Shown here one piece after another: positions 8,389 to 53,260 of a stretch of DNA of 64,000 nt (its first letter is position 1; each line of letters opens with the position of its first letter). Made by a program: the position numbers and the translations under genes. The notes under the pieces are model-generated. The model saw only the letters and a list, made by a program, of their open reading frames with translations. It searched no databases and was not told where the DNA came from. The stretch is from an uncultured Verrucomicrobiae bacterium (GTDB taxonomy: Bacteria > Verrucomicrobiota > Verrucomicrobiia > Limisphaerales > UBA11358), in assembly GCA_963842445.1 (NCBI GenBank), contig CAWJHF010000003.1:143342-207341 (forward strand), given 5' to 3'.

Positions 8389-8469
8389 ATGGCTGAATTG
8401 AACATTCAAAAAATCTCCTCGTTCGATTCACCTGAACTCCAAGCTTACGCCACGATGCAGCTTGCCTGA
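8389..8469 (+). pseudogene. Orphan 5' copy of the trmH-family gene (26-codon mini-ORF)
   Basis: MAELNIQKISSFDSPELQAYATMQLA* aligns with the start of 9036-9902 (MLRIQKISSFNSPELQPYATMKR). Confidence 0.85.
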
Positions 8470-8496: not shown

Positions 8497-8709
8497 ATGC
8501 GAAAAGAACGCGTCTATCACTGCGATCCGGAAATCCTTGGGGGCACGCTGGTCTTCAAGGGCACGCGCGTGCCGGTGCAAAGTCTTTTCGACCATCTCAA
8601 GGCGGGCGATTCCATCGAGGATTTTTTGGAAGGTTTCCCCAGTGTGAAGCGTTCGCAGGTGCTGGCCGTACTCCGGGAAATGGAAATGGAAGTTCTCGCC
8701 CACGCCTGA
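8497..8709 (+). CDS. DUF433 family antitoxin (VapB45-like)
   Basis: DPEILGGTLVFKGTRVPV..L..G.S.E.FLE.FPS signature. Confidence 0.9.
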   Translation: MRKERVYHCDPEILGGTLVFKGTRVPVQSLFDHLKAGDSIEDFLEGFPSVKRSQVLAVLREMEMEVLAHA

Positions 8710-8710
8710 T

Positions 8711-9031
8711 GTGAGAATTCTTCTGGATGAAAACCTGGATTGGCGGTTGGGGCACTTTCTTCCCGGGCACGAGGTCAAATCCGTCCCGCGCCTCGGTTGG
8801 GCAGGATTGAAAAATGGGATACTTCTTCGCCGGGCGAATGAAAGTTTCGACGTGCTTATTACCATGGACAACCCTATGGTCAGTCAACAGAATCTGTCGA
8901 AACTCAAGATCGCCGTAGTCGTCTTGCGTGCACCGTCGAATCGCCTGGCAGATACCAGCCCGCTCATGCGGCAAGTTCTTGCGCTGCTGCCACGTTTAAA
9001 GCTAGGAAAAGTAGCGAGGGTGGCGGCTTGA
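8711..9031 (+). CDS. DUF5615 PIN-like toxin (VapC45-like)
   Basis: MRILLDENL..GWAGLKNG.LL..FDVLITMD; directly follows DUF433. Confidence 0.88.
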   Translation: MRILLDENLDWRLGHFLPGHEVKSVPRLGWAGLKNGILLRRANESFDVLITMDNPMVSQQNLSKLKIAVVVLRAPSNRLADTSPLMRQVLALLPRLKLGKVARVAA

Positions 9032-9035
9032 GTTC

Positions 9036-9902
9036 ATGCTACGCATCCAAAAAATCTCCTCTTTCAATTCGCCCGAACTCCAGCCTTACGCCACGATGAA
9101 GCGGCCGCTGGAGCAGGAACGGCAGGGTATCTTCGTAGCCGAAGGGGTAAAAGTCGTGCGGCGGCTGCTCGAAAGCCATTTCACCGTTACTTCGGTCGTG
9201 CTGCCGGAAAAATGGCTGGACGATTTCCGTCCGCGGATTGAAGCGCGCCCGGAACCCATCACGGTTTATCTCGCCGAAAAGAAATTTCTGGAAGGGCTGG
9301 TCGGCTTTTCTATGTTCCAGGGGGTCCTCGCCGTCGGGAAAATTCCGCCACCCGTTTCGCTCGACGAACTCCTGCAAAAAAGTCCCCAGCCGCGGCTCCT
9401 GGTCGCCGTGGACGCATTAACCAACGCCGAAAATCTTGGCGCCCTCGTCCGGAATTGCGTCGCCTTTGGCGTTCAGGCGTTGCTCGTAGGCGAAACTTCC
9501 AGCAGCCCGTTCCTGCGCCGCGCCGTCCGCAATTCCATGGGCACCATTTTTCAATTGCCGGTCATCGAACTGGCGAAACTCGGCCAACGGCATCAGTTCA
9601 CCACCAAACCGCATACCACGAACCTGACGCTCGCGGAATGTTTGAAGGAGCTTCGCGTCCGTGGTGTCCGCTGTATCGCGGCGCATCCGCACACGGACAA
9701 GAAGGTCTTGTCCCAGGCGGATTTTTCCGGCGATTGTTGCATTGTCTTTGGCAGCGAAGGCGACGGGCTTTCTGTACCGGTGCGGGAAGCGTGCGATGAA
9801 GCGGTGGCCATTCCGATGCCGCCGGCGGTGGATTCACTCAACGTCGGCGCGGCGGCGGCGGTTTTTCTTTATGAGGCGAACCGGCAGCGAAAACATTCCT
9901 AA
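9036..9902 (+). CDS. TrmH/SpoU family RNA 2'-O-methyltransferase
   Basis: F.AEG, NLGALVR, FGSEGDG, IPM...VDSLNV SPOUT motifs. Confidence 0.92.
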   Translation: MLRIQKISSFNSPELQPYATMKRPLEQERQGIFVAEGVKVVRRLLESHFTVTSVVLPEKWLDDFRPRIEARPEPITVYLAEKKFLEGLVGFSMFQGVLAVGKIPPPVSLDELLQKSPQPRLLVAVDALTNAENLGALVRNCVAFGVQALLVGETSSSPFLRRAVRNSMGTIFQLPVIELAKLGQRHQFTTKPHTTNLTLAECLKELRVRGVRCIAAHPHTDKKVLSQADFSGDCCIVFGSEGDGLSVPVREACDEAVAIPMPPAVDSLNVGAAAAVFLYEANRQRKHS

Positions 9903-16749: not shown

Positions 16750-17322
16750 TCACCAATCTTTGACGGGCTGGTTCTGATTTTCTGGTTTTCCCCGCGGCTT
16801 CAATTGCAGGACCTGTTCGCTGCCTTTTTGCGCGTCCAACAAGCGCTTCGCCTCTTCCGGCGTCATCTGCCCCGCGGCCACCGGCTGGCCCTGTTCATTT
16901 TGATTTTCCTGCTTTTCGCCAGATTTTTGTTCTTGCTGCCCGGCGTTTTTCTGGCCGGATTGGTTCTGTTCGTTCTGCTTTTGCTGCTGTGAATTCTGTT
17001 GGGACGGCTGTTGCTTCTGTTGTTGCTGCTTTTGCCGGCTGTTTGATTTCTGCTGCTGCGATTGATTCTGCTGGTTTTGTTGCGATTGATTGTTTTGCGA
17101 TTGTTGCTGGCTCTGTTGTTTTAACAGCTCATACAACTTTTTCAGTTTCACATCATCGGGATAACGTTTCAGCCCCTCTTCCACCGGCGCCAAGGCTTGG
17201 GGAATGTTGTTGGAAATGTAGAAATGCGCGCCGCTGTTGAAAAAATCATCGGCGGTTTGCGCGCAGGCTGCCTGCCATGCCATCAGCAGGCTAACGCTGA
17301 TTGGGAGCGACAATCGCATCAA
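16750..17322 (-). CDS. Q-rich BatC-tail-like exported protein
   Basis: Signal peptide, long Q/N tract, MTPEEAKRLLDA, C-terminal KDW. Confidence 0.75.
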   Translation of the reverse strand: MMRLSLPISVSLLMAWQAACAQTADDFFNSGAHFYISNNIPQALAPVEEGLKRYPDDVKLKKLYELLKQQSQQQSQNNQSQQNQQNQSQQQKSNSRQKQQQQKQQPSQQNSQQQKQNEQNQSGQKNAGQQEQKSGEKQENQNEQGQPVAAGQMTPEEAKRLLDAQKGSEQVLQLKPRGKPENQNQPVKDW

Positions 17323-19024
17323 TGTCCTTCAATTTTTTGGTGTAATCCTGGAATTTTTTGGCCGCAATTGGATTGTTCAAACTTTCCATGATTTCCAGCG
17401 CGCGGTGATACTCATTGCGCCGGACCGCCTCATCAGCCGCCAGCTTGGCTCTCCGCATCGCTTCGCGCAGTTGCGCGATCAATCCAATCTGCCTCTTCAC
17501 GAACGACAGATTGTAGGCGGCATCCATGTCATTCGTGTTCAATTCAGCCGCGTGCTCATAACATATCACCGCTTGTTGCCAGGTTTCCTCCATCGCATCC
17601 AGGCCTTCTGTGTCCGGCTCGAATTTAAGTTCACCCTGGCGGTACAGCGTGTTGCCCAAATTGTAATACGCCGGCTGTTGCAGTTTCAAATCCGGCGACA
17701 ACGTCGCCGTCTTGAAATCGTTCAACGCCGCGTCAAAATTTGTTGCGCGATACGCCGCCGCGCCCGCGTTGAAGACCAGACGCAAATCGTTCGTGTTCAC
17801 TTGTGCGAGCTGTTCAAATTCCTGCAAAGCGTTCGTGTAATTGCCCGCGTTGTATTCGCGCAATGCGCTCGTGGGTGACGCAGCTGCGTTACTGCAAACA
17901 GCCACCGCCAGCAATGCCACCAGCATTGCGACCGGAACGCCGGCCTCTGCCGCGCCGAAGCTTCCGAGCGAAGGCTGGTCCGGTCCGGCCCGTTTCAATC
18001 GGCCAACCGCCTCACGCCGGGCCGGAGACCGGCGTTCCGGCAAAAACATTTCCGCCAGCAGCAGCAAAACCGCCGCCGCCAGCGGCCAATGAAATTGATC
18101 GTGGTATTGTTTGATTACCAGCTCCTTGTTCTCCGATTTCGGCAGCGGCGCGAGTCCGCGCTCGTAAAGCACGTCCATCGTGTTCGCGCCACGCCAAGGC
18201 AGATAAAACCCGCCCGTTGTCGCAGCGATTTGCTGCAATAGCGTCTCATTCAGATGTGATTTCACCACGTTGCCGTCCGGGTCGCGGATATAATCCGAGT
18301 TGCCATTCGCATCCGTAGTCCGCAACAAGGCGCCTTCCGCCGTTCCGATGCCGATGGTGAAGATTTTCATGCCGGCCTTCGCCGCGTCCTGTGCCGCGGC
18401 GAGTGCGGCGGCTTCGTTGACGTTGTCCTCGCCGTCGGTCAACAGCACCAGCACCCGCTGTCCGCCGCCCTCCTTGAACGCGGTCTGCGCCGTTTGAATG
18501 GCGCCGGCAATCGCCGTGCCGCCCAGTGAAACCGAGTTCACGTCCAGCGCCTGGACGCTTTGCTCAAACGCCGTGTTATCAGTCGTCACGGGACATTCCA
18601 AAAAGGCGTCCCCGGCAAATGCCACGAGGCCGACCCGGTCGGCCTTCGCCGCCCGCGCCAATTCCAGCGCGGCCAGTTTGGCATGTTCGAGCCGGTTCGG
18701 CGCAATGTCCTCGGCCAGCATTGATTTTGAAGTGTCCACGGCGACAACGATGTCCAGTCCGCGCTGCTCGACTTCCTGCAAATCAAACCCGTGCTGTGGC
18801 CGCGCCAGTGCCACAATCAAAAGCGCGATGGCCGAAATCAAAAGGGCGAACCGGATTTTCCGCCGCGCTGGTGAAATGCCAACCGTCAGGCTCGCAAGCA
18901 GCCGTGCCTCGATAAATTGCGTCAGCAGTTTTTGCCGCGCGCGTTCGCGCCACCAGAAAAACAGAGCCAGCGCCGGCGGCAAAACCAGCAGCAGCCAGAG
19001 AATTTGCGGATGCTCGAATCTCAT
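17291..19024 (-). CDS. batB: vWA + TPR protein (BatB with BatC-like TPR)
   Basis: DTSKSM MIDAS, DIAPNRL, TDGED, YNLGN TPR motifs. Confidence 0.85.
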   Translation of the reverse strand: MRFEHPQILWLLLVLPPALALFFWWRERARQKLLTQFIEARLLASLTVGISPARRKIRFALLISAIALLIVALARPQHGFDLQEVEQRGLDIVVAVDTSKSMLAEDIAPNRLEHAKLAALELARAAKADRVGLVAFAGDAFLECPVTTDNTAFEQSVQALDVNSVSLGGTAIAGAIQTAQTAFKEGGGQRVLVLLTDGEDNVNEAAALAAAQDAAKAGMKIFTIGIGTAEGALLRTTDANGNSDYIRDPDGNVVKSHLNETLLQQIAATTGGFYLPWRGANTMDVLYERGLAPLPKSENKELVIKQYHDQFHWPLAAAVLLLLAEMFLPERRSPARREAVGRLKRAGPDQPSLGSFGAAEAGVPVAMLVALLAVAVCSNAAASPTSALREYNAGNYTNALQEFEQLAQVNTNDLRLVFNAGAAAYRATNFDAALNDFKTATLSPDLKLQQPAYYNLGNTLYRQGELKFEPDTEGLDAMEETWQQAVICYEHAAELNTNDMDAAYNLSFVKRQIGLIAQLREAMRRAKLAADEAVRRNEYHRALEIMESLNNPIAAKKFQDYTKKLKDIDAIVAPNQR

Positions 19025-19992
19025 GGCAACCTCCGTAAAATAGTTTGTCCCAGCATCACCTCGACCAGCAGCAACGCCAGTCCGCACGCGACCCCCCACG
19101 GAAACAATTCCTTGAACTCCGTGTATTTGCTGATGACTGCTTCGGTTTTCTCCAATTTATCAATGTCCGCGTAAATGGCCTTGAGTTCTTCCGTGTTATT
19201 GGCGCGATAAAATTTGCCACTGGCAATTTGGGCAATTTGCCGCAACGCGTCCTCGTCCGGCAAATAATCCTGCGACAATCCCATCGCCTGCACCATTTCC
19301 CGGTTGCCCAATCCAATGGTGTAGATTTTGATGCCGACCACTGCTGCCGCCCTCGCCGCCGTGAACGGATCAACTTCGCCTGAATTGTTTCCACCATCAG
19401 TCATCAGGATGACGACTTTGCTCTTGGCCTTCAGGTCGCGCAGGCGGTTGAGCGCTGTCGTCAATCCATCACCAATCGCCGTGCGGTCTGGATTGATCAC
19501 CCCGATGTCAAGCCGGTCCAGGTCTTCAGTCAAAAAATCATGATCCAGCGTCAGCGGCGTCGCGATGAACGCGTGCGTGGCAAAAACCACCAACCCGATC
19601 CGATCATTCGGCCGGCCCTCAATAAATTTATTCAAAACGGCCTGCGCTACGTCAAAGCGGCTGATGCGTTGGCCCCCCTTGATGTAATCCGGGGTGGTCA
19701 TGCTGCCGGACATATCGAGTGTCACCACAATGTCAATGCCGCTCGCCTTCACCTCCGTCGTGCTCTTTGCCAGACGCGGTTGCGCCAGCGCGACGATGAA
19801 TAACGCCAGCGCCAACCAGCGCAAAGCCGTCAGAAGTGCGCCGGCACGCGAACGCCGGACGCTCGTCAAGCCTTTCATCAGTTGCAGTGACGAATATAAA
19901 AACGCCGGTTGCGAACCGCGCCAGCCTTTCAGCCACGCCAGCAATGGCAGCAACAGGAGCAACAGCAAAAAATATGGATGAGCGAAGGTCAT
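19021..19992 (-). CDS. batA: vWA domain protein BatA
   Basis: ALAQP, DMSGSM, DRIGLVVF, TAIGDGL, TDG, IDKLEK. Confidence 0.9.
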   Translation of the reverse strand: MTFAHPYFLLLLLLLPLLAWLKGWRGSQPAFLYSSLQLMKGLTSVRRSRAGALLTALRWLALALFIVALAQPRLAKSTTEVKASGIDIVVTLDMSGSMTTPDYIKGGQRISRFDVAQAVLNKFIEGRPNDRIGLVVFATHAFIATPLTLDHDFLTEDLDRLDIGVINPDRTAIGDGLTTALNRLRDLKAKSKVVILMTDGGNNSGEVDPFTAARAAAVVGIKIYTIGLGNREMVQAMGLSQDYLPDEDALRQIAQIASGKFYRANNTEELKAIYADIDKLEKTEAVISKYTEFKELFPWGVACGLALLLVEVMLGQTILRRLP

Positions 19993-20537
19993 TGACTAAC
20001 ATCCTGGGTCTGGAGTCCGGGTTCCGGAGTTTCCACCGGCGGCAGTTCCGGTTTTGGTTCGGTTTCTTCAACGAGCCGAAGCGCAGCGGAATGCAATTCA
20101 CGCAATTCCTGTTCGCCCGGTTCGTATTTGGCGAACTTCACGAGGTCGCAGCTCTCCAGAAATTCGCCCAGTTTTTCCTTCTGCTCCGCCATCAACCGGT
20201 CGGTGGATTGCAATTCATGCAAAAATTCCTCGGTCGTCCGCTCCGGCGCGCGAAAATCAAATCGTTCTTCGAGATAAAACCGGATCGTGTCCGAAACCAG
20301 AATGCAGAATTCCTTTGGCTGTGAAATCAACGCCAGCGCTTCCTCCAGCTTTTGTTTCGCGCGGACATGCGCCGGTACGGGTGGCTCGACTGAAATTTGC
20401 GAGCGCCGTTTTTGCCGCCAATTCCAGACGAAAACAAGGACGGCGGCCAGCGCAACCAGCGTCCACCAAAGCCATTCCCAGCCATTCGGAATCACCAACG
20501 GCGGCTTGATGTCGCGGATGTCGTTCGCGTTGGTCAT
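19989..20537 (-). CDS. bat-operon membrane-anchored protein (DUF4381-like)
   Basis: DIRDIKPP, one TM, ERTTEEFL, DLVKFAKY; usual position between DUF58 and batA. Confidence 0.75.
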   Translation of the reverse strand: MTNANDIRDIKPPLVIPNGWEWLWWTLVALAAVLVFVWNWRQKRRSQISVEPPVPAHVRAKQKLEEALALISQPKEFCILVSDTIRFYLEERFDFRAPERTTEEFLHELQSTDRLMAEQKEKLGEFLESCDLVKFAKYEPGEQELRELHSAALRLVEETEPKPELPPVETPEPGLQTQDVSQ

Positions 20538-20549
20538 GGTCTTGTTACC

Positions 20550-20617
20550 GTAGGAGCCGACATAAGGAGGCTCTGACTCTCCCTTTTAAGAACGAGACTC
20601 CTCACGTCCTCTTCCAC
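20550..20617. repeat. REP-like doublet, family GTAGGAG.CGA.GT.A.GAG.CTC (copy 1 of 4)
   Basis: Inverted arms; related copies at 26127-26218, 61745-61817 and 63494-63568. Confidence 0.75.
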
Positions 20618-20637
20618 AAAGTTCAAATGCCTTTGGC

Positions 20638-21615
20638 TCATCCGCGCAATCTCCGCTTTTCCCGGTTCTCAAAAAACCTTCCCAATGCCGCCGAGTAAGC
20701 TTCACCCGTGTGGAGTTGAATGGTGTCAATGCCGGAAGACCGGAATTGCCGCGCCAGATCCTCATTCTGCTTTCGCTGGCGCAATGCAAATGCGTCGCGG
20801 CTGCCCGCGTCGCCGGTGTTGAGCTCCAAGATTTCGCCGGTCTCGGCATCCTCCAGGATCAAACGCCCAAGGGCCGGCAATTCGAGTTCATAGCGATCCG
20901 TGATTTGCACGGCCACGACGTCGTGGCGGCGATTGGCCATGCGCAAGGCGGTTTGAACCGCTTGCGGCAATACGCCGGTTTTGGACTGCGCGGGTGTGTC
21001 CGCGCTTTGTTTCAACGCGACCTGTCGCGTGGTTGAAATCGGGGACGCGTCACCGCACTCCAAAAAATCCGAAATGACGACCGCGATGGCCTTGTGCGGC
21101 AAAACGCGGCCCATGAATTCCAGCGCGTGGACCAAATCCGTTCCGCGCCGTTTCGGCTCGGAGAAAAGCACTTCGCGAATCACCCGCAACACGTGACCGC
21201 GGCCCTTGCGCGGCGGGATGAACTTTTCCACCTCGTCCGTGAACAGGAGCAGGCCGACCTTGTCGTTGTTGCGGATGGCGGAGAAGGCGAGCACGGAGGC
21301 GATCTCGGCGGCGAGTTCGCGTTTGGACTGGTCGCGCGAGCCGAATAGTCCCGATCCGCTCACGTCCACGACCAGCATCACCGTCAATTCGCGTTCCTCG
21401 ACGAATTTTTTAATGAACGGATGGTTCATACGCGCGGTGACGTTCCAGTCAATGGTGCGCACGTCGTCGCCGGGCTGGTATTCGCGCACCTCGTCGAAAT
21501 TCATCCCCTGCCCTTTGAAGACGGAATGGTACTGGCCCGCGAGCGTCTCGGTCACGAGCCGGTTCGTGCGCAACTCGATCTGCCGGATTTTTTTGAGAAT
21601 CTCGCGGGGAATCAT
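20638..21615 (-). CDS. DUF58 protein (MoxR-associated)
   Basis: FKGQGMNFDEVREYQPGDDVRTIDWNVTAR, EERE, DVSGS, ISDF. Confidence 0.92.
   Translation of the reverse strand: MIPREILKKIRQIELRTNRLVTETLAGQYHSVFKGQGMNFDEVREYQPGDDVRTIDWNVTARMNHPFIKKFVEERELTVMLVVDVSGSGLFGSRDQSKRELAAEIASVLAFSAIRNNDKVGLLLFTDEVEKFIPPRKGRGHVLRVIREVLFSEPKRRGTDLVHALEFMGRVLPHKAIAVVISDFLECGDASPISTTRQVALKQSADTPAQSKTGVLPQAVQTALRMANRRHDVVAVQITDRYELELPALGRLILEDAETGEILELNTGDAGSRDAFALRQRKQNEDLARQFRSSGIDTIQLHTGEAYSAALGRFFENREKRRLRG
20979..21065. repeat. Palindromic element in frame in the DUF58 gene
   Basis: TTTTGGACTGCG...CGCACTCCAAAA; adds ECGDASP..SADTPAQSK after ISDF. Confidence 0.7.
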
Positions 21616-21620
21616 GGGTG

Positions 21621-21648
21621 GCGTGATGCGTGATGCGTGATGCGTGAT
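21621..21648. repeat. Heptamer tandem repeat (GCGTGAT)x4
   Basis: Directly visible, just upstream of the DUF58 start codon. Confidence 0.9.
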
Positions 21649-21662
21649 GCGGAAAACCCTGC

Positions 21663-21690
21663 TTGCGCGGGCAAATCAACGGAGTAAATT
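21663..21690 (+). promoter_or_regulatory. Putative promoter for a leaderless TA transcript
   Basis: TTGCGC-16nt-TAAATT, ATG 6 nt downstream; resembles 8462-8499. Confidence 0.5.
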
Positions 21691-21696
21691 GTTGGC

Positions 21697-21924
21697 ATGA
21701 GTGCGACGGAAATTCTTGAAGAACTGCGTCGGATGCCGGAAGTGGAACGACGTGAACTCGTTGAAACCATTGAATTGGAATTTGGCGATTTCGACGATAA
21801 ACTCACACTGGAGCAAAAAACCGAACTCGATCGCCGTGCGGAAGAATTTCGCAAAAACCCGCGCGATGGAATTCCATTTGAACAAGTCCGCGAAGAGGCC
21901 CGCAAACGCTTCGGTTGGAAATGA
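21697..21924 (+). CDS. Addiction-module antitoxin (TIGR02574-like)
   Basis: L..ERRELVE.I...LT.EQK.ELDRR..E...NP..GIP.EQV signature. Confidence 0.88.
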   Translation: MSATEILEELRRMPEVERRELVETIELEFGDFDDKLTLEQKTELDRRAEEFRKNPRDGIPFEQVREEARKRFGWK

Positions 21925-22217
21925 AGCGGGTGTGGCTCAAATCGCCCGCCGACTTGGATTACCTTCAAGCGTTGGAATGGTATGAAGAACGGCGGCCAGG
22001 CTTGGGGCAGGAATTCGACGCCGAACTTCTGGCGCTGTTCGAGCGCATCAAACAAAACCCTGAACTTTTCCAGAAAGAAACCGCTGTTGTTTGCAAGGCG
22101 CGGATGCCGCATTTCAAATACCGGATTTACTTCACGGTTGAGGGTGATGAAATCGGTGTGCTTGCCATCTGGCATCCCAGCCGGAATCCCGAAGCGCTGC
22201 GCCGCCGGCTGAAATGA
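21921..22217 (+). CDS. RelE/ParE family toxin
   Basis: A.LD..A..WYEERRPGLGQEF, F.Y.IYF, VLAIWH.SR.P; ATGA overlap with antitoxin. Confidence 0.88.
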   Translation: MKRVWLKSPADLDYLQALEWYEERRPGLGQEFDAELLALFERIKQNPELFQKETAVVCKARMPHFKYRIYFTVEGDEIGVLAIWHPSRNPEALRRRLK

Positions 22218-22220
22218 AAA

Positions 22221-22301
22221 GCCCGCGAGCGTTTCGGTCACGATGCGGTTCGTACGAATCTCGATCTGCCGGATTTTTTTGAGAATCTCGCGGGGGATCA
22301 T
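22221..22301 (-). pseudogene. Orphan 5' copy (27 codons) of the DUF58 gene; frame stays open to 21612
   Basis: MIPREILKKIRQIEIRTNRIVTETLAG vs MIPREILKKIRQIELRTNRLVTETLAG at 21535-21615. Confidence 0.9.
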
Positions 22302-22310
22302 ACGGGATTT

Positions 22311-24344
22311 TTAATTTTTAATGCGCTGTACTTGCACGGCACTGATCAATAAATCGTCACCGCCGTTGAAAAATCGGAAATCGGAAAACTTATTTTCCGA
22401 ACCACCAAAACCGGCATCGTTCACAAAAAATTGAGCCAACTTCCATTGTCCTGAATTCATGCGGCGAACAGAATAGGGATAATGTTTGTATGCTCCGCCC
22501 AGCGGTTGTCGAATATCCGTTGAATCATAATCCAATCCAATATCACCGGAACCGGAATCAAAATATGCCAAGTCAATTTCCAATGTCTTGGCGGGTTCTG
22601 GACGAAATTCATCGGGAACTTTTAGATAAAAGTAATTCGATGACGAGCGTTTCGGCACAAGCCAGCAATGTCTGCCTTCGCGTTCCTCAATCGAGAATTG
22701 GCCGTCGTCTTGAAATACCGGTGTCAATCCTTGATCACTATTTGGCAGGCCAATGATCTTTTGCATATCCGTGTTGTAGTAAGCACGAATCGTCGCAAAC
22801 TCATCTTTGGGCAAAAGAAATACATACTGCCCTGGATAGGCCGCCTCAACCCGGTCTAACACCCGTTTGATTGCGGAATAACCATGGTCGCCTTGATAAA
22901 AACCGCCAACGATACAAGTAAATCCGCAGAATATTGGTTTATGAGGGTCTGGTTTTATCTTTACGATTTGATTGAATAAAGCCTCTTCATTGTCCGCGCC
23001 CCAAGTATCAACTTTTGGTGGAAAACCAGCTTTAATTCTCCAGCCTTCGCCGAACAATCCATCGAAACCACAAGTTGTCATGTATAGGCTGTATTTTGGA
23101 CTGGGATTCGGCGCAATCCAAATGCGGCCTGAATGAAATCCAGCATCTAAACACCAACGATGATTCAAATTACACCAAGCAGGGAAAAGTCTGTCGCTAA
23201 AATCTTGAATGAAAACATATTGAAATCCTGTTGGGCCGGCAACCAATTCGTCATTGGTTGTTATTTTTGAGTAATACCAGTCCAGCAATGGAGAATCTAA
23301 TTCCTGTAACGCAGGAGCGAGTGCCGTGGCGACTGGAACTTTTCCGCGCGCCGGGTCGTGCCAAAATTTATAGAGCGGATTTTGGTCGAATTCGAGATTG
23401 TCGCCGTCGCTCCACATGATGTGGGCATAGACTTTTCCTGCTTCAGCTTTAATCGCTTTACCCGGCGTCTGTGTGTAACTCTTGTTTGGAAAACTCGACC
23501 AAAAACTTCCATTCGCATATAGCACACTTACGACGTAACCAATGCCATGCGTATTGGCAACGATGTTGCCGGCATCACCAGTGTTTGCATATCCCATCAA
23601 TGAAGTGCCAACACCGTAACCGGGTGTTCTGAAAATTTTTTCAACCTCCGGCCGCTCTTTGTCGAAATCCAGCCAAAAAACAAACCCTTTGCTTGCTACT
23701 GCGTAATCCGTTATGGGGCTATCATGGTCGGGGGCCACAAAAACCACTTTCTTGGTGCAGTGGGGCATCAGATTTGCCAGAGCCCAATCATAAGCTTCAA
23801 TTCGATTTGACCATATATTTCGGAAATCTTCCACGTCTCCTTTCCAGCTGAATTCGGAAATCAATTCATCTTTAATCGGCTCTGTTACCGGAATTCCATC
23901 TTGCTGTGAACCGGACATCAAAGCCAAATACCAGGTCCAATCTTTTTCGGGATCGTAAATGAACATTTTCTTTACTTGCCCCTGATATTTCTGAAAAAGC
24001 GTTCTCAATCCGGCATTGGTTCCCGTCAGTCTCGGCAATTCTATGTAAGGCTTTCCACAGTCCTTCAGTGGATTCCAATCCCACGGATTATTAATGAGAT
24101 AAACTTCGGCGGATTTTTGATTGATCAACCCTTGCAATGCCCGAGCAGTCATCCATGCGTTTCCGCTGTCTTTGTTGATATTGACAACACAAGCGTTCGT
24201 TGCCGCCGGCATTTTGGGAAACATTCCACTCGCGGCTTGCGCTGTTAGTTGGAACAAGCACGGAGAGAAAAAGAAAATTGCCACAAATAAATTCCGGCAA
24301 CATTTCAACCTTCGCTGTATGCACTCGTTCAAAATCATTTTCAC
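22311..24344 (-). CDS. GxGYxYP-family putative glycoside hydrolase, secreted, with C-terminal beta-sandwich domain
   Basis: ALQGLIN, DYAVA, SDGDN, WYY..T.ND.LVAGPTGFQY; visibly AT-richer than flanks. Confidence 0.75.
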   Translation of the reverse strand: MKMILNECIQRRLKCCRNLFVAIFFFSPCLFQLTAQAASGMFPKMPAATNACVVNINKDSGNAWMTARALQGLINQKSAEVYLINNPWDWNPLKDCGKPYIELPRLTGTNAGLRTLFQKYQGQVKKMFIYDPEKDWTWYLALMSGSQQDGIPVTEPIKDELISEFSWKGDVEDFRNIWSNRIEAYDWALANLMPHCTKKVVFVAPDHDSPITDYAVASKGFVFWLDFDKERPEVEKIFRTPGYGVGTSLMGYANTGDAGNIVANTHGIGYVVSVLYANGSFWSSFPNKSYTQTPGKAIKAEAGKVYAHIMWSDGDNLEFDQNPLYKFWHDPARGKVPVATALAPALQELDSPLLDWYYSKITTNDELVAGPTGFQYVFIQDFSDRLFPAWCNLNHRWCLDAGFHSGRIWIAPNPSPKYSLYMTTCGFDGLFGEGWRIKAGFPPKVDTWGADNEEALFNQIVKIKPDPHKPIFCGFTCIVGGFYQGDHGYSAIKRVLDRVEAAYPGQYVFLLPKDEFATIRAYYNTDMQKIIGLPNSDQGLTPVFQDDGQFSIEEREGRHCWLVPKRSSSNYFYLKVPDEFRPEPAKTLEIDLAYFDSGSGDIGLDYDSTDIRQPLGGAYKHYPYSVRRMNSGQWKLAQFFVNDAGFGGSENKFSDFRFFNGGDDLLISAVQVQRIKN

Positions 24345-25330
24345 GGCACCGGCAGTTCATCGAAAATCTTCTGGATGACCGTTTCGCTGGTTTTTTCCTC
24401 GGCTTCGGCTTCGTAGGTGATGGCCACGCGGTGGCGGAGCACATCCATGCCGATGCTTTTCACGTCCTGCGGCGTAACGTAGCCGCGGCCTTTGAGGAAC
24501 GCATACGCCTTGGCGGCGAGCGTCAGGTTGATGGTCGCGCGCGGCGATGCGCCGAGCTGGATGAAGTCCTTCACGGCTATCTTGTAGTGGTCCGGGTCGC
24601 GCGTGGCGCAGACGAGATCCACAATGTATTCCTTCACCTTGTCGTCCACGTAAATGTCGTTGATGACTTCGCGGGCTTTGAGGATTTGCTTCGCCTCGAC
24701 GACCGCGCTGGCGGTGGGCGTGCCGGACGTGCGGGCCATGAGGTCGAGGATCTGCCGTTCCTCGGCGCGGGAGGGGTAACCGATTTTCAATTTCAACATG
24801 AAGCGGTCCACCTGCGCTTCGGGCAACGGGTAGGTACCTTCCTGTTCGATGGGATTTTGCGTGGCCAGCACCAGGAACGGTTCCTCGAGCTTGAAGGTTT
24901 GCTCGCCGATGGTGACCTGTTTTTCCTGCATGGCTTCGAGCAACGCGCTTTGCACCTTGGCCGGCGCGCGATTGATTTCGTCGGCGAGGATGAGATTGGC
25001 GAAAATTGGCCCTTTGCGCGTGCTGAAACTGCCGGATTGCGGGTTGTAAATCTGTGTGCCGATGACGTCGGCGGGCAGCATGTCCGGCGTGAATTGCAGG
25101 CGCGAGAATTTGACGTGGATGCAATTCGCCAGTGATTTGACGGCCAGTGTCTTGGCCAGGCCGGGCACGCCTTCGAGGAGAACATGGCCGTTGGCAAGCA
25201 AGCCGATGACAAGCCGCTCGGTCAGATAGGTCTGGCCGACAATGACTTTGCCAAGCTCGGTGAATAGTGGATGAGTAAATGCGCTTGCTTCTTTTACCGC
25301 GTCGTTGATTGCAGAGATTCCCGTGTTCAT
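24341..25330 (-). CDS. moxR: MoxR family AAA+ ATPase
   Basis: LLEGVPGLAKT, QFTPDMLPAD, ADEINRA, ATQNPIEQEGTYPLPEAQ.DRF. Confidence 0.95.
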   Translation of the reverse strand: MNTGISAINDAVKEASAFTHPLFTELGKVIVGQTYLTERLVIGLLANGHVLLEGVPGLAKTLAVKSLANCIHVKFSRLQFTPDMLPADVIGTQIYNPQSGSFSTRKGPIFANLILADEINRAPAKVQSALLEAMQEKQVTIGEQTFKLEEPFLVLATQNPIEQEGTYPLPEAQVDRFMLKLKIGYPSRAEERQILDLMARTSGTPTASAVVEAKQILKAREVINDIYVDDKVKEYIVDLVCATRDPDHYKIAVKDFIQLGASPRATINLTLAAKAYAFLKGRGYVTPQDVKSIGMDVLRHRVAITYEAEAEEKTSETVIQKIFDELPVP

Positions 25331-25391
25331 TTTTGTTGATTATTTTTTCGATGGACAAAAAAACCGTGGCTGCGTTCAAGCAAAATTTATG

Positions 25392-26246
25392 TCACGCGCC
25401 AGGCAGAATCTCAACCTGCTTCACCGCCAGCCAGCCGATTTTCCCGGAACCGTCGGCAACCTGCACCCAGTCGCCGTGCCGGTCCATGATCGCGAGTTCC
25501 GCGCCATCACGCGTGATGAAAGCGCTTTGCGCCTCACCAAACGGCCCACTGCGCGCCGTCACTTCCATTAAAACCACCACAGCGGTCTGCCTGGAAAAAT
25601 GTTCTGCCGCCTGCAAGCCCAGCGCCGCGCCGAATAGAACGGTCAGAACTGCGAAAAGGGATGTTGCGCTCTTCAATTTCGCACCGGACGCAGGGCGGAT
25701 CTGTCGCGCTGCGTGCAAAATAAACGTCAGCCAAAACGCACCCGCCGCCAGCATCGTCCATTCGTTAAGCGTCAACTGGCCGAGCCATCCTTGCCAGCGG
25801 CTTTCGCGAATTGTCGAGCCTTGAACCTGGTTGCGGACGAATTGCAGGTTGGCGCGGATTTCCGCGTCACGCGGTGCCAGGAGCGCAGCCTGGCGATAAG
25901 AGGCAATGGCCTTGCCGAGATTGCCCGCTTTGAATTCCGCGTTGCCACAGTTAAACAGCAGTGCCGGTGACTGCGCGCCGGTTTGCAAGATTTTTTCGTA
26001 GGCGCCCGCCGCCTCGGCAAATTTTCCCTCGGCGTAAAGTTTGTTCGCCGCCGAAAAATCTACGGCAACACCTGCCGCGAGAATGTTCCCGGCGGAAATC
26101 AGCAGGAACAGCAAACTCAAACCCCAGTAGGAACCGGGGTAACGAGGCTCAAACTTAAATTGGAAATCAGAAATTGGAAATTGGGAATAAATCAGAGACT
26201 CCTTACGTCGTCTCCCACAAAGGTAAAATGAAAACCTCGTTTTCAT
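25392..26246 (-). CDS. batE: BatE-like TPR + SH3 protein
   Basis: AN.LY..G.F..A...Y, N.GNA TPR, two TM, W.QV....K.GW; a REP element occupies the N-terminus. Confidence 0.8.
   Translation of the reverse strand: MKTRFSFYLCGRRRKESLIYSQFPISDFQFKFEPRYPGSYWGLSLLFLLISAGNILAAGVAVDFSAANKLYAEGKFAEAAGAYEKILQTGAQSPALLFNCGNAEFKAGNLGKAIASYRQAALLAPRDAEIRANLQFVRNQVQGSTIRESRWQGWLGQLTLNEWTMLAAGAFWLTFILHAARQIRPASGAKLKSATSLFAVLTVLFGAALGLQAAEHFSRQTAVVVLMEVTARSGPFGEAQSAFITRDGAELAIMDRHGDWVQVADGSGKIGWLAVKQVEILPGA
26127..26218. repeat. REP-like doublet with internal AAATTGG heptamers, inside the batE 5' coding region
   Basis: GTAGGAACCGGGGTAACGAGGCTC...GAGACTCCTTACGTCGTCTCCCAC. Confidence 0.75.
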
Positions 26247-28174
26247 GCCTTTAACTTCTGGAGTTCACCGACGACATTTTCAAATTGCGCGGCGACCGAG
26301 TTCAATTCGCTGCTGCCGCGTACCGGCGCGTAGCGCGCCTGGTTGCAAAGCTGGAACAACTCACGCAATCCGTTCAGTAGATTTTCCGAAGCGCCCCGCA
26401 GCGCGGGATGTTCATCAATCAAATTTTCCGTGATTGACGACGCCGGACAATCGAGCCGTTCGCCAAGCTGTTCCTGCAACAGCCGGAACAGCATGGCAAA
26501 AAATTCGTCCGGCTTGTTCTCCGCCGCGCATTTTTTCAAATCGTCCATCCCACTGGCGATAAGCTGGGCGACAGCACGTTGTCGCCGCAGGCGCGGGTTG
26601 TTGGCCAGACTGTCCGCGCGTTTGCGCCACACCAACGCCGCCAGAAATCCGAGCACCGGCAATCCCTGCAGCGCGAGAAATACCGGCCGGATCACAAGCG
26701 GAGGGCCGGCCGCCACCAGCGCGCCCATTTCCTCCTTGATGGGCATAATGTCCTGCGGCGAAGAAGGATTTTGCGCGCCGCCGGCCCTGACCGCTGCGCT
26801 CGCGGGCACGGTGGCCTTTCCGGCCGAACGGACCGCGAGCGGCACGGAGGGCTGTGTAAGCGTGCGGTAATTCCCGTCGTCAGGATCGAAAAATGAAAAG
26901 GACAATTGCGGCAATTGATGGACGTCCGTGCTTTGCGGTGTGACGATTTCCTCGAACGTTTTTGTCCCTTCGATGCCAAGCTGGTCGCTGTTTTCGATTT
27001 TCGACGTGGGCGGAAAGAGTTTGAAACCGTTCCAGCCCGACTGATCGGGCAATTTTAACACGCCGAAATCGCCGCGACCAGCGATTTGGATATGCACGGT
27101 GATGGGGTCGCCCACGGCAACGTTCGTCGGCCCGGCGGTGGTGGTCATCGTGTAATGGCCGACCGCGCCATTGAAATCCGCCGGCCTGCCTTCCGCCGGC
27201 AGCGGCAGCGAGTCCACACCCAGCGTGTCGGTGGCGACTGAAATCGGTCTTTGGACGTTGCGGCGGAACATTCCAAACGGGTCGAAAAATGGGTCAGACT
27301 GGCGATCATTCGACGGAACAAGCAGGACCATGGTGACGGTGACGGGGCCGATGTGCAACGTGCCGGCTTTGGTTGCGGTCAAAGCGAGTTTGGCCGGGAT
27401 GACGTTGTAAATGGCGTCGCCGATTTGCACGAGACTTTGATTGTCGCCGGCGATCTTTCCGACGGAAAATCCGTCCGCCGGCACGCCGGTGATTTGCGGC
27501 TGCCTTGCCAATTGCGTGTCCTGCCGGTAAAAAAGTTGGAGGTCGGCGGTGATGGTCTCGCCCGCATAAACTTCCCGCTTGGGCAGGGCCAGTCTTGCGA
27601 AGGCAATCTGCGAATCGGCGTTGGCCCCGGCCGGCTGCGGCGCACCGGGTTTGGTGACCGTCAATTTCAACGGCTGGCTGGTCAACGTCTGTCCACCCAC
27701 ATTCGCCGTCAGCGCCGGGATGATGAATTGGCCCGCCTGCGTGGGCGTGACCACGTAATTGAACGAGTCATAACTGGTGCGGTTCCCGTTGATGTTGACG
27801 TCTATATGCGCCGGCCCGCCGACCAGCACGAGTTGAAGATTCGACACGGTCATGGACGAGGGCAGTTGTTCCGGCGAGCCGCCTTCAAATTTCAATAATA
27901 GCGTCGCGGTCTCGCCCAGCACGATGGTATCGCGATCCAAAGAGGCGGTAAAGCTCGTCGCCCGGGCAGTGATCACACCGAAACCCAGCGCGCCCAGAAA
28001 CAAAAGAACGGCAAGGCAAAATGGAATCACTCTCCGGTTGCACACCCGGAAAAAGCATTTTGCCGAAGGCGGATCCCCGCGGGCCGCAAGGGGAAAACCC
28101 AACGACTCGCTTTCATTCTCAGTTTGTTTTTGGCCATTATCCATCCACTCAACAAAAAGACATCGTCCACGCAA
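26243..28174 (-). CDS. batD: BatD family protein (start uncertain)
   Basis: ASLDR..I.LGE, G.F.IPA, YAGE, F.GAVG.Y, TM, QARYAP. Confidence 0.85.
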   Translation of the reverse strand: MRGRCLFVEWMDNGQKQTENESESLGFPLAARGDPPSAKCFFRVCNRRVIPFCLAVLLFLGALGFGVITARATSFTASLDRDTIVLGETATLLLKFEGGSPEQLPSSMTVSNLQLVLVGGPAHIDVNINGNRTSYDSFNYVVTPTQAGQFIIPALTANVGGQTLTSQPLKLTVTKPGAPQPAGANADSQIAFARLALPKREVYAGETITADLQLFYRQDTQLARQPQITGVPADGFSVGKIAGDNQSLVQIGDAIYNVIPAKLALTATKAGTLHIGPVTVTMVLLVPSNDRQSDPFFDPFGMFRRNVQRPISVATDTLGVDSLPLPAEGRPADFNGAVGHYTMTTTAGPTNVAVGDPITVHIQIAGRGDFGVLKLPDQSGWNGFKLFPPTSKIENSDQLGIEGTKTFEEIVTPQSTDVHQLPQLSFSFFDPDDGNYRTLTQPSVPLAVRSAGKATVPASAAVRAGGAQNPSSPQDIMPIKEEMGALVAAGPPLVIRPVFLALQGLPVLGFLAALVWRKRADSLANNPRLRRQRAVAQLIASGMDDLKKCAAENKPDEFFAMLFRLLQEQLGERLDCPASSITENLIDEHPALRGASENLLNGLRELFQLCNQARYAPVRGSSELNSVAAQFENVVGELQKLKA

Positions 28175-28349: not shown

Positions 28350-28443
28350 ATAACTATTGCAAACATTGACGTTTTTTAGCTTTTTAAAATCTTCTATTTT
28401 CCTGTTGCATCCTGTTTTTGCATCCCGTATATTGTTTTCAGCT

Positions 28444-29700
28444 ATGAGAACACTATCCGAAACTGCAACGGCAGGCGCACAAAGCCAGCTTACTAACCCG
28501 CTGCCCCGTTCAACCAAGAAATCAACCTGGTGGAAGCGAGGCGAGCACTTAGTCCAGCATACGCCAACAGGGACATTTTACTGCCGTCTAAAAGTCAAAG
28601 GCAAGACGATTCGTGCCAGTCTCAATACGGATGTTTTCACTACGGCGCGGCTTCGGTTGCCGGACAAAATCAAAATTCTTCGCAAGCCAAAGGCGGAAAC
28701 CGGCACGTTCGGCGATGGGCGGCTCAAATATGAGACGGAATCGCGCAACGGTTACACGTCGAAGAAAAACCGTTTCGTGAAACTCGCGCCTTTGAGCATT
28801 GCCTACCGCTTGCGCTGTCTCGAATGTCTCCGGCGTTCGTTGGTCGAAACGCTGATTCATCCGGGCAAGACGTGGAAATCATTGAGCGAACAAGCCCGGC
28901 ACGATGCGTTTGCCAAGCTGGACGCGATCAACGCCCGCGCCTTCACCCAAGAACATTGTGAGGCGTGGCAGTCCCGCTTCTCGGATTATGCGCCGTCAGT
29001 CTTTAACAACACGGTGAATACGTTTCGCCGCGTTCTCGAATTGGCCGGACTGCCGCATGATGAAAACCCGGCTTTCAAAATCGGGCGCAGAGACATTCTC
29101 GAAAAACCGATACGGCTTCCGCGTCCTGAACAGTTTGACCGTATCATTCAACTTGTCGAAACGTCCGGCGCGGCACAGGCGCGGGATTGTGCCGACTTAA
29201 TCCGGTTTCTCGCGTTCACCGGCACACGAATCAGCGAGGCAAAACGCGCAGTCTGGTCTGACGTGGACTGGCAGGAAAACACGCTTCAAATCCACAGTGT
29301 CAAAGTCAGAGGCGCGCATGACGGCGAAGTGACGCGCGTAATTCCGTTGAATCCGGCGTTAAAGCAGTTGCTTGAACGGCTGCGGCAGGAACAAAAATCG
29401 AAACCCACAGATCGCATTTGCGGAGTTTCCGAATGTCAGCGGAGCCTTGACCGGGCTTGCAAATTGACAGGATGCAAACGCATCACGCATCACGATCTGC
29501 GGCATTATTTCGTGACCAAATGCCTTCAAGCTGGTGTTGACGTGTTCACGCTGGCGAAATGGGTTGGACACCGAGACAACGGCAAGCTACTGCTAAAGGT
29601 ATATTCTCACCTACAGGCCGAGCACTCGCAAGAGCAGGCCGCCAAAGTGAAGTTCGGCGCGGCTCCGCTGTCAGGCTTGCGCCAACCTCTTTTGAATTAG
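28444..29700 (+). CDS. Tyrosine recombinase / phage-type integrase
   Basis: TGTRISEA, HDLRH, WVGH, Y(VYSH) catalytic residues; N-terminal arm-like region; next to tRNA-Phe. Confidence 0.9.
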   Translation: MRTLSETATAGAQSQLTNPLPRSTKKSTWWKRGEHLVQHTPTGTFYCRLKVKGKTIRASLNTDVFTTARLRLPDKIKILRKPKAETGTFGDGRLKYETESRNGYTSKKNRFVKLAPLSIAYRLRCLECLRRSLVETLIHPGKTWKSLSEQARHDAFAKLDAINARAFTQEHCEAWQSRFSDYAPSVFNNTVNTFRRVLELAGLPHDENPAFKIGRRDILEKPIRLPRPEQFDRIIQLVETSGAAQARDCADLIRFLAFTGTRISEAKRAVWSDVDWQENTLQIHSVKVRGAHDGEVTRVIPLNPALKQLLERLRQEQKSKPTDRICGVSECQRSLDRACKLTGCKRITHHDLRHYFVTKCLQAGVDVFTLAKWVGHRDNGKLLLKVYSHLQAEHSQEQAAKVKFGAAPLSGLRQPLLN

Positions 29701-37700: not shown

Positions 37701-38490
37701 TACGGTAATTGTCAACGGTGCCTGTGGCAGCGTGACCAACAGCGCGACTTTGACAGTGAACGTGCCGGTGACGGTGACCGTGCCGCCGGCGAGCCAGACG
37801 ACGGTAGTGGGGAGCAACGTCACGTTCAGCGTGACGGCGACCGGGACCGGTTTGAGCTATCAATGGCTGTTCGGCGGTTCAGTGGTTGGGACGGCCAGCA
37901 GCCTGACGTTGAACAATGTGACCACCGGCCAGGCTGGCGTTTACACCGTGATTGTCAGTGGTGCCGACGATGACGATCCAGTCACCAACAGCGCCACGCT
38001 GACGGTGGACGTGCCGGTGACAGCGACCGCTTTGACCAATTTGGTGTGTAATCAGGGTGACAACGCAACGTTCAGCACGGTGGCTTCGGGCACCGGACCG
38101 TTCAACTACGCTTGGTTGAAGAACGGAAGCGTGATTTCCGGCCAGAACAATAACTGTTTGACTTTAAACAGCGTGAGCACCAATGACGCGGCGACTTACA
38201 GTGTAATCGCGAGCGGAGCGTGCAACAGCGTAACCAATAGCGCCACGCTGACGGTCAATCTTCTACAGCCGCCCAGGCTCTCAATCGTTCCCCAAGGAAA
38301 CGGCAGTGTGAAAGTTACCGCGTCGAATGGTGCTTCCGGTCAGAATTATGTGCTTTTGTATTCAACTAACCTGGTTAATTGGACAGTCATTAGCACGAAC
38401 ACGGCTGACTCAACCGGGGCAAGCACGTTCATCAACCTGGACGCCACGAACCATCCGTACGGCTTTTACCGGACCATGACGCCGCAATAA
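34794..38490 (+). CDS. Large secreted protein: propeller-like N-terminus, ~10 Ig-like domains, C-terminal FYR domain; frameshift at ~35888
   Basis: ORFs 34794-36227 and 35848-38490 join if one A is removed from ACCGGAACCTTAC (sister repeats read ACCGGTCCGTTC and ACCGGACCGTTC); real start may be ~35016. Confidence 0.8.
36298..38004 (+). repeat. Seven near-identical 243-bp (81-aa) Ig-domain tandem repeats
   Basis: Units start at 36298, 36541, 36784, 37027, 37270, 37513, 37756 (last unit 249 bp). Confidence 0.93.
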
Positions 38491-50154: not shown

Positions 50155-50271
50155 GCGCTGGAGCCAACGCCGACTGCCCCTTGAGTTTATGGATGGTTTG
50201 AGTTATACAACGATTATTGAGCTTGCGGAGCCACTTGCCCGTCGGCGTGGCTCAGCTTTGGATCGTTAGGC
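50155..50271 (+). repeat. attC-B, large half, inverted (R'' end at 52735-52748)
   Basis: GCGCTGGAGCCAACGCCGAC...GGCTCAGCTTTGGATCGTTAGGC, 127-bp family in the opposite orientation. Confidence 0.88.
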
Positions 50272-50600: not shown

Positions 50601-50721
50601 CACCACGCTGGAGCCAACGCCGACTGCCCCTTGAGTTTATGGATGATTTGGGTTATACAACGATTATCGAGCTTGCGGAGCCGCTTGCCCGTCGGCGTGG
50701 CTCAGCTTTGGATCGTTAGGC
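50595..50721 (+). repeat. attC (127-bp family), inverted
   Basis: GCCTAACACCACGCTGGAGCC...GGCTCAGCTTTGGATCGTTAGGC. Confidence 0.92.
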
Positions 50722-50741: not shown

Positions 50742-51053
50742 ATGAGACAGCTTTTCTTTTTATCATTGGTGGCTGCGATGATTGCGTCCATCGTTCTCAT
50801 GGTGCGTCGTCCAGTGCGGTTGCTTGCCACTATCCAGATTATTCTTACGGCACTCGTCGTCGTTGGTTTTGCTGTCGGCATGAAGATGGCTTTGTGGATA
50901 CATTCGATGTCCATGTCTGACCCGGTGCGGCAGGAGTGGCAGCCGCGAGTCAGTGTGATTGGAGCCGTTTTGTGGTTTGGGACGATTATTCCGTGGTTAC
51001 TTTTTACGATTTACCATGTCATTATTGTTGTCAGGCGGAAGTCGTCGGCCTAA
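50742..51053 (+). CDS. Inverted-segment cassette: 3-TM membrane protein
   Basis: Stop TAA lies inside R'' (GCCTAAC). Confidence 0.7.
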   Translation: MRQLFFLSLVAAMIASIVLMVRRPVRLLATIQIILTALVVVGFAVGMKMALWIHSMSMSDPVRQEWQPRVSVIGAVLWFGTIIPWLLFTIYHVIIVVRRKSSA

Positions 51054-51061
51054 CACCGCGC

Positions 51062-53114: not shown

Positions 53115-53130
53115 AGTTATGTCGGTTTCG

Positions 53131-53257: not shown

Positions 53258-53260
53258 CAC

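Follow-up and report, generated by a model that had tools for sequence, protein, structure and literature searches.

A toxin-antitoxin cassette slot at the doubled 5′ end of the DUF58 gene in Limisphaerales

How chromosomal toxin-antitoxin (TA) pairs move without mobility genes is a long-standing open question. It is raised by a locus in a 64,000-nucleotide stretch of contig CAWJHF010000003.1 (the whole stretch is referred to here as the window), from an uncultured Verrucomicrobiae bacterium of the order Limisphaerales. In a Bat/MoxR operon of this stretch the start of the DUF58 gene occurs twice, and a TA pair lies between the two copies, antisense to the operon. An earlier note on this DNA had pointed out the doubled start and its cargo and had suspected a recurrent mechanism. 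We interpret the locus as a slot for cassettes at the start of DUF58 in this operon, present across the order Limisphaerales. It offers a concrete and testable route for the movement of such pairs, with a repeated gene end as homology arm and dozens of natural replicates in one order.

The doubled start, its cargo and its recurrence

The locus contains one two-copy direct repeat of 81 nucleotides (nt), of which 74 are identical (91%) in an ungapped alignment; the homology extends from the ATG through codon 27. Copy A (21535-21615, minus strand) corresponds to codons 1-27 of the functional gene. Its translation, MIPREILKKIRQIELRTNRLVTETLAG, is continuous with an intact DUF58 (VWA-fold) gene of 325 amino acids (aa) at 20638-21615 on the minus strand (PF01882, E 8e-80). 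Copy B (22221-22301, minus strand) is the upstream copy of codons 1-27, with the translation MIPREILKKIRQIEIRTNRIVTETLAG, and lies 9 nt past the stop of the preceding GxGYxYP-family gene. The copies differ at repeat positions 6, 43, 45, 48, 57, 58 and 69. Five of these seven differences fall at third and two at first codon positions, leaving four synonymous codons and two Leu/Ile codons. The 81-nt repeat has two copies only in the 3.77-Mb genome.

Two small genes on the plus strand occupy the interval. The first encodes a 75-aa antitoxin (21697-21924; PF09720 Unstab_antitox, E 2.9e-8, 34.1 bits against a cut-off of 23.3), and the second encodes a 100-aa toxin of the ParE/RelE family (21915-22217; PF05016 ParE_toxin, E 1.9e-7, 32.0 bits against a cut-off of 23). 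The likely toxin start is the ATG at 21921, giving an ATGA overlap with the antitoxin stop (21921-21924), and the toxin stop is 3 nt from copy B. Two co-oriented, overlapping small genes with the antitoxin first constitute a type II layout; by family and layout, the pair is a predicted type II TA. A candidate promoter, read by eye from the sequence (21663-21690, plus strand; TTGCGC, a 16-nt spacer and TAAATT), may serve it. This block matches the consensus at 8 of 12 positions, ends 6 nt before the antitoxin ATG (near-leaderless), and has a conserved counterpart in relatives. A consensus promoter and terminator scan of 21300-22500 reported nothing, this candidate included. ORF and Pfam analysis of 21616-22220 revealed no recombinase or transposase ORF between the copies. 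The doubled start around an antisense TA pair and the lack of a mobility gene between its copies, both claimed in the earlier note, are thus correct. No TA pair of the same families was found elsewhere in this genome, except for a weak antitoxin-like match inside another repeat-flanked cassette.

The arrangement was found repeatedly in related genomes. A first sample consisted of the best DUF58 loci of 24 genomes, taken from the genus of the window and from further families of the order. At 14 of the 24 loci one strand carried two or three DUF58 starts, and at 10 there was a single start. Antisense TA pairs of the same families were present in 14 of the 16 intervals between starts. A second sample of 20 further loci from other families, 19 of them with a full DUF58 gene, yielded 15 more TA-bearing intervals. 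In an order-wide scan of 401 Limisphaerales genomes with a degenerate start motif, the motif was found in 292, and at least two such motifs on the same strand were counted by hand in 49 (48 when the unpublished genome G334 is left out). Some genomes carry two or three cassettes, and cassette arrays were observed at loci L067, L072, L073, L079, L082 and L083. The related loci were labelled Verrucomicrobiota, Verrucomicrobiia, Limisphaerales or Pedosphaera, and DUF58 orthologues were present in 41 of 41 relatives. Doubled starts with cargo, which the earlier note had suggested seeking among relatives, therefore recur in dozens of independent assemblies and are not peculiar to this one.

The genome is a 25-contig assembly, most likely metagenomic, and a chimera of two strains could in principle produce a doubled start. 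Such an artefact was rejected as having next to no probability, because dozens of independent assemblies show this structure and contigs from three other runs, all metagenomes, bridge it. Logan contigs of those three runs extend from copy A across the TA pair into copy B (one covers 21586-22295, with 31 differences), and other-run contigs also span copy B, the GxGYxYP gene and MoxR. The doubled DUF58 start with its TA cassette is, as a structure, almost certainly real.

An open frame across the cassette

The ATG of copy B opens an ORF of 229 codons (21612-22301, minus strand), referred to here as the bridge ORF. It continues antisense across toxin, antitoxin and promoter and terminates at a TGA overlapping the ATG of DUF58 (ATGA). 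The predicted protein matched no Pfam family, and its sequence is conserved no further than the TA genes impose. Start-to-start spacing was 2 mod 3 in all 29 TA cassettes (14 in the first sample and 15 in the second). Were the intervals independent, which is not the case, the chance of this would be ~1e-14. In 27 of the 29 (14/14 and 13/15, respectively) the ORF continued without a break from the upstream ATG as far as the next ATGA. Of the two exceptions, both in the second sample, one has a stop 6 nt early and the other a stop 3 nt early, beside a mutated ATG. The other two frames of the TA intervals contained 1-16 stops. The bridge frame was open across added non-TA sequence too, giving ORFs of 308-420 codons in L008, L012, L068 and L079, and through the non-coding promoter region as well.

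Two controls were applied to the open frame. In the first, synonymous codons were resampled with the TA proteins held constant. For the ten cassettes with both genes resampled, 0.7-1.6 stops were expected and the probability of an open frame, P(open), was 0.13-0.5. Where the antitoxin alone was resampled (four cassettes), P(open) was 0.13 in L008 and 0.86-0.90 in the other three. The product of P(open) over all 14 cassettes (range 0.13-0.90) was 1e-7. The second was a natural control of 80 loci found GTDB-wide by toxin alignment, 76 of them evaluable and partly overlapping with the earlier samples. The frame in register with the toxin was open over antitoxin and toxin in 51 of 51 loci with a DUF58 start, compared with 8 of 25 without one (p 3e-11). 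Among the controls labelled Verrucomicrobi- it was open in 2 of 8 (p 6e-7 relative to slot loci), and among those labelled as non-Verrucomicrobiota taxa in 4 of 14.

These results bear on the possibility that the open antisense frame is not kept for coupling, and is either a by-product of codon usage or the gene of a third functional protein. A P(open) of 0.13-0.5 per cassette with both genes resampled and the eight open controls are compatible with a by-product, as is the invariable ATGA at DUF58 starts, which is present because the protein begins Met-Ile. A by-product does not readily explain an open frame at every one of the 51 slot loci, a spacing of 2 mod 3 in every cassette, or continuation of the frame through added non-TA sequence and the promoter region; a third protein is at odds with the lack of a Pfam family and of conservation beyond the TA constraint. 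We consider this explanation very improbable, and selection for keeping the antisense frame open highly probable.

At 16 of 31 loci the ATG of the first upstream copy overlaps the stop codon of an ORF before it that is at least 80 aa long, and at 12 more it lies 0-36 nt past such a stop. At cassette-free sites, too, an ORF ending in the ATGA of DUF58 often comes before this gene. We infer that the bridge ORF is selected because it keeps the insert translated and DUF58 translationally coupled. Non-TA intervals differ in this respect: those of L068, L070, L079 (the second) and L082 (the first) and two 272-nt units in L067 are read through; those of L027, L029 (the second), L074, L080, L084 and L086 are not; and the non-TA interval of L069 is an in-frame fusion. 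The upstream copy is thus no dead remnant: it opens an ORF that is kept open across the cassette.

The intervals of L008, L012 and L029 also contain repeat-like sequence, in which the antisense-strand ORFs share the motif ...AALRGGGSA.FTPLQ.AN... This is probably a small dispersed repeat element; the bridge frame is open through it in L008 and L012.

Cassette turnover and the origin of the repeat

Similarity among cassettes was compared with similarity among their host genes. Over 10 cassettes (45 pairs), mean identity was 41% for the toxin, 49% for the antitoxin and 83% for DUF58, and toxin identity was uncorrelated with DUF58 identity (Spearman 0.05 over the 45 pairs). Hosts with 95% identical DUF58 carried toxins just 51% identical, and hosts 86-89% alike at the nt level bore cassettes only 55-61% alike. 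The window's cassette is 84.7% identical in nt to that of a genome whose DUF58 body is 73.0% identical, and in a cross-family pair the cassettes are 85.5% identical compared with 79.0% for DUF58. In most upstream copies the junction consists of codon 27, 3 nt and the toxin stop (class I), with a conserved toxin C-terminus; in several other loci it lies at codon 20-23. A right-end module, ttttgcaagcgc followed by ATGATACC..., is common to four species with unlike toxins, and in these four species the first codons of the functional gene travel with the cassette sequence.

A single ancient insertion in the ancestor of the order, followed by vertical descent with repeated loss, fast TA divergence and gene conversion and without transfer, would account for part of this pattern. 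The class-I junction and the toxin C-terminus ...NPAELRRRLK occur in several families, copies within a genome are more alike (mean 90%) than copies between genomes (86%), and no near-identical cassettes were seen across lineages. However, cassette and host similarity should then not be uncorrelated, with cassettes sometimes more alike than the host gene and hosts of 95% identical DUF58 carrying such different toxins. The varying junction codons and right-end modules, including the module common to four species with different toxins, and the arrays of unlike cassettes in some genomes also argue against it, as does a codon-position bias described below. Vertical descent from one insertion therefore seems unlikely to us.

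The differences between the two copies in the window are informative about exchange. At all five informative sites in repeat positions 45-69 the DUF58 gene of the closest relative matches the functional copy; at position 6 it matches the upstream copy. Such a mosaic fits a single crossover within repeat positions 7-42, to judge from this alignment. The question of which copy is native, posed by the earlier note, therefore has a split answer: positions 45-69 look native in the functional copy, and position 6 does so in the upstream copy. Third-position identity over codons 2-14 was 71%, compared with 60% for the gene body, in cassette-bearing genomes, and 59.6% compared with 60% in single-start genomes. 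This rise, confined to cassette-bearing genomes, gives weak support to a recombination account.

The same design was found at other genes of this genome. Self-comparison of the genome for local two-copy direct repeats (35-250 nt, at least 78% identical, at most 3.5 kb apart) revealed 62. Classing them by raw ORFs gave 28 at 5′ ends, 23 at 3′ ends and 11 unclassed; this classing is noisy and was not relied on. Ten gene-end cases were instead picked by hand for clear annotation. In each, one of the two copies coincides exactly with the 5′ or 3′ end of a conserved gene: DUF58, trmH, rluA-like, argG, mutM, SRAP-like, glucan-phosphorylase-like, sigma-54 regulator, beta-CASP-like and one other. Over these ten repeats, 53 of 88 coding mismatches lie at third positions, compared with 46% expected if one copy decays (p 0.005), and 52 codons differ synonymously and 28 non-synonymously. 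The differences between copies thus look coding-constrained, in line with the synonymous and conservative differences that the earlier note saw at DUF58. Cargo at these other sites includes further TA pairs (DUF433/DUF5615 at trmH, an antitoxin with MazF at the rluA-like start, and HicB/HicA) and also a NERD nuclease, an ORF6N protein, DUF6567, a cupin and unknown proteins.

The trmH locus lies in the window. An upstream copy of the SpoU/TrmH gene start (8403-8461, plus strand; 59 nt, 86% identical to 9044-9102) precedes the methyltransferase gene at 9036-9902 on the plus strand, whose functional start copy is 9044-9102. The cargo between them (8497-9031, plus strand) is a sense-oriented putative TA pair, DUF433 (8497-8709) and DUF5615 (8711-9031). 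The earlier note had named trmH as a locus of the same design with a different target, cargo and orientation, and this is real. Of 16 relatives' loci, 2 also have a trmH slot, with a pair 35-48% identical. Downstream of argG, copies of its 3′ end were found in 7 of 41 genomes, twice in one of them. With the same design at other genes of one genome and the same gene in many genomes, the recurrence suspected in the earlier note is supported for the design.

Further instances were observed in passing. At C5:34568-35620 (L058) the last ~37 argG codons are repeated past an ORF6N-domain gene, with 18 of 21 mismatches at third positions, and in the relative G028 (C38:61255-64155) two argG-end copies in a row form an array at the 3′ end. 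At C5:9230-9859 (L051) a HicB/HicA pair lies between 53-nt repeats resembling the start of a minus-strand ORF, and here too the full pair is spanned antisense by a minus-strand ORF, of 196 codons. In relatives, the MoxR C-terminus recurs as short copies 0.5-0.7 kb downstream of full MoxR, at L021 (5091-5159), L026 (2637-2720), L074 (1185-1253) and L080 (798-920; DUF58-strand coordinates). A second cassette slot, opposite that of DUF58, thus seems to exist at the 3′ end of MoxR.

Alternatively, the DUF58 start might serve as attachment site for a site-specific recombinase supplied in trans, either integron-like or a tyrosine integrase, that inserts or excises the cassettes. The arrays, with their conserved ~81-nt unit between cassettes, would suit such an enzyme. 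Prophages that replace a gene end show the same type of repeat with synonymous differences, and the genome contains ~25 Phage_integrase (tyrosine-recombinase) matches. One of these genes (28357-29700) lies next to the operon, divergent from it and 6 kb from the slot. However, it lacks a syntenic orthologue: in 40 relatives no integrase syntenic with the slot was found. The best matches of this neighbour are at most 47% identical, and those on the slot's contig lie 48 kb and 174 kb away. Single-strand folds of both repeat copies on both strands showed no hairpin, being no better than shuffled controls (z -0.40 to 0.44). The other cassettes of the genome use unrelated repeats and share no edge motif, no 7-mer being present in more than 3 of 11, and the junction shifts between codon 20 and codon 27. 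A recombinase in trans is thus improbable, more so than one ancient insertion.

We favour a different reading, in which the unit consists of ~20-27 codons of the DUF58 start and an antisense ParE-toxin/PF09720-antitoxin pair with its own promoter, and carries no recombinase. Its origin would lie in a rare founding event that left a long gene-end duplication, either a single crossover of a circle bearing one start copy or recombination with one-sided homology. Host homologous recombination would then cause gain, loss and swapping of cassettes and their multiplication into arrays, at sites provided by the copies of the first ~42 nt of the gene, which are highly conserved, and by the conserved 3′ end of the toxin. 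The upstream start copy would be in use: it is placed at or near the stop of the preceding ORF and opens a stop-free bridge to the DUF58 ATGA. Because the bridge ORF has no stop before this ATGA, ribosomes would cover the insert, and translational coupling to DUF58 would be kept without polarity. The cassette presumably persists because it is addictive and costless to the operon. That recombinase-free addiction cassettes are exchanged by homologous recombination at a repeated gene end and bridged harmlessly is, taken as a whole, a reading to which we assign a probability of roughly 0.55. ComEC and DprA are present in the genome; they say little about competence, because the same families were found in 10-11 of 14 control genomes.

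Several points weigh against this reading. On the 5′ side, the crossover is supported by one site. The data are assembled contigs, and no excision circle, empty-site read or recent transfer was seen in them; the bridging evidence likewise comes from assembled contigs and not reads, and such contigs cannot reveal excision inside a single population. Across lineages, cassettes are at best ~85% identical in nt, so that exchange is not shown to be ongoing, and the class-I junction is the same across families, which a single old event would explain as well. Because the relatives are kin and there is overlap among the three samples, the p-values overstate the evidence. The ~25 tyrosine-recombinase matches in the genome have to be reckoned with. 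As to the bridge, its frame, being in codon register with the toxin, is inherently poor in stops, and 8 of 25 controls were open too. In 11 of the 51 slot loci the TA pair lies upstream of DUF58, no upstream copy was found and the frame was nonetheless open, so that the repeat is not essential to the bridge. RNA runs contained at most 0.07 of the sampled words, and any sequencing run at most 0.32.

A wider extension of the favoured reading would be an integrase-free cassette system throughout Limisphaerales, in which gene-end copies, 5′ or 3′, act as portable homology arms that direct small selfish or accessory cassettes to the matching gene end in any relative, with integron-like arrays, excision by the host, and a bridge that evolved at the DUF58 slot. 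We advance it tentatively, as somewhat more likely to be wrong than right. If it were true, an addiction module would live in an operon without polar damage. An unexpected constraint is already evident, since an ORF antisense to a whole TA operon was open in every slot locus examined; if the bridge ORF preserves translational coupling, selfish genes would have a novel means of remaining neutral within an operon. The slot also matters in practice for annotation. Gene callers will yield spurious "proteins" of 170-420 aa at the slot, the upstream start copy will be labelled a pseudogene, and pangenome tools will overlook small islands between gene-end copies.

Surroundings of the slot and comparison with known systems

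The operon is of the Bat/MoxR aerotolerance type, with BatD, TPR, MoxR, DUF58, DUF4381, BatA and BatB-like VWA genes identified by Pfam on a single strand (17291-28174, minus). BatD comes first (26243-28174; Pfam), followed by a gene for a TPR/SH3 protein (25392-26246), the MoxR AAA+ ATPase gene upstream of DUF58 (24341-25330; Pfam), and the GxGYxYP-family gene between MoxR and the DUF58 slot (22311-24344), all on the minus strand. After DUF58, on the same strand, come DUF4381, BatA and a long VWA/TPR protein; the ORF at 17291-19099 was assigned from its sequence alone, and not by Pfam. The GxGYxYP gene, a putative glycoside hydrolase, is a separate insertion of its own between MoxR and the slot, because its GC content is 42-47% compared with ~60% in the flanks. 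There are contigs of other runs, from other organisms, in which it is missing and the MoxR end is joined straight to a DUF58 start with ~34 nt between. The joints that skip 21616-24340 have sides of 37-48 nt with 85% likeness, again in other organisms, and are a mere hint of empty forms.

Four tandem heptamers (GCGTGAT on the plus strand, CATCACG on the minus strand; 21621-21648) immediately precede the ATG of DUF58. In relatives, related runs of heptamers stand before DUF58 starts whether or not a cassette is there; those seen before DUF58 starts in many genomes include CATCACG, ATTCCGC, TCGCCAT, ATTCAAC and similar. A similar run occurs elsewhere in the window, at 59865-60032. Other features of the window are a DDE-type transposase-like ORF (48509-49993), identical ORF segments in opposite orientation (49804-50184 and 51050-51412), and, between these opposed segments, a 116-nt direct repeat, 97% identical (50156-50271 and 50606-50721), around a small membrane-protein ORF. 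At 35830-38220 there is a long array of 243-nt tandem repeats with 77-94% identity, presumably within a single gene. A separate family of dispersed repeats of ~128 nt, with the ends GCCTAACG...GTTAGGC, occupies 53126-57997 (53-58 kb).

The DUF58 slot may be compared with several known systems. The pair itself resembles other ParE/RelE type II systems with PF09720 antitoxins in that the antitoxin comes first, the genes overlap by ATGA, and the proteins have 75 and ~100 aa. Unlike the usual pairs of this kind, it lies antisense inside a housekeeping operon and is fully overlapped by an ORF of the opposite strand. Chromosomal integron arrays often carry TA cassettes, and the slot is like them in having small cassettes with a repeated unit between them, a fixed site, and a TA pair with its own promoter. 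However, it has no adjacent integron integrase and no attC-like hairpin; its repeat, unlike that of integrons, is host-gene coding sequence, and the other slots use other gene ends.

Integrase-mediated elements are known to replace an end of their target gene, as with e14 or phage 21 in icd and with islands in tRNA genes. They keep the target gene intact through a substitute end, and the displaced end forms a repeat with synonymous differences. Unlike elements of the e14/phage 21 type, the DUF58 insert is 0.6 kb long and has no integrase, the end replaced is the 5′ end, and the displaced copy appears to be reused for translation. Minimal mobile elements of Neisseria integrate through host recombination by homology to conserved flanking genes. 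In homology-facilitated illegitimate recombination, according to the available part of one account, host recombination alone integrates foreign DNA through homology (PMC3240628). The DUF58 slot differs from both in its duplicated gene end and bridging ORF. To our knowledge, both processes have been described as replacing or deleting recipient DNA, with no duplicated gene end and no bridging ORF.

A literature search that left most subscription journals outside yielded nothing on a TA pair as cargo at the start of a gene, on cassette arrays of this type or on a bridging ORF. The earlier note was aware of no described class of element with this structure, a claim that did not survive. The nearest precedent is the insertion of restriction-modification systems with long target duplication. 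A paper by Nobusato and colleagues is said to have dealt with restriction-modification insertion with long target duplication as early as 2000. In the available part of their paper, Furuta, Abe and Kobayashi (2010; PMC2853133) describe selfish, addiction-type restriction-modification units without a mobility gene, flanked by target-duplication repeats of 46-420 bp; genomes with an empty site have one copy of the repeat. Two cases from Haemophilus influenzae have a repeat that extends into a gene 3′ end, by 15 bp and by 2 bp, and the life cycle proposed there consists of invasion, amplification through the repeats, and release. The DUF58 locus shares three of the four features of these long target duplications, as far as that part of the paper gives them: genome-unique direct repeats of more than 30 bp (81 nt, two copies), a single copy in insert-free genomes (10 of 24 loci), and no transposase or integrase in or adjoining the insert, the nearest being 6 kb away and non-syntenic. 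The fourth, restriction-modification cargo, is replaced by a type II TA pair. Unlike the units in that part of the paper, the DUF58 repeat consists of the gene's first 20-27 codons, one slot is used order-wide by many unlike cassettes and arrays, the copies differ mainly at synonymous sites, and the upstream copy starts a conserved bridging ORF. The order-wide gene-start slot, the arrays, the synonymous divergence of the copies and the bridge ORF are thus new relative to long target duplications.

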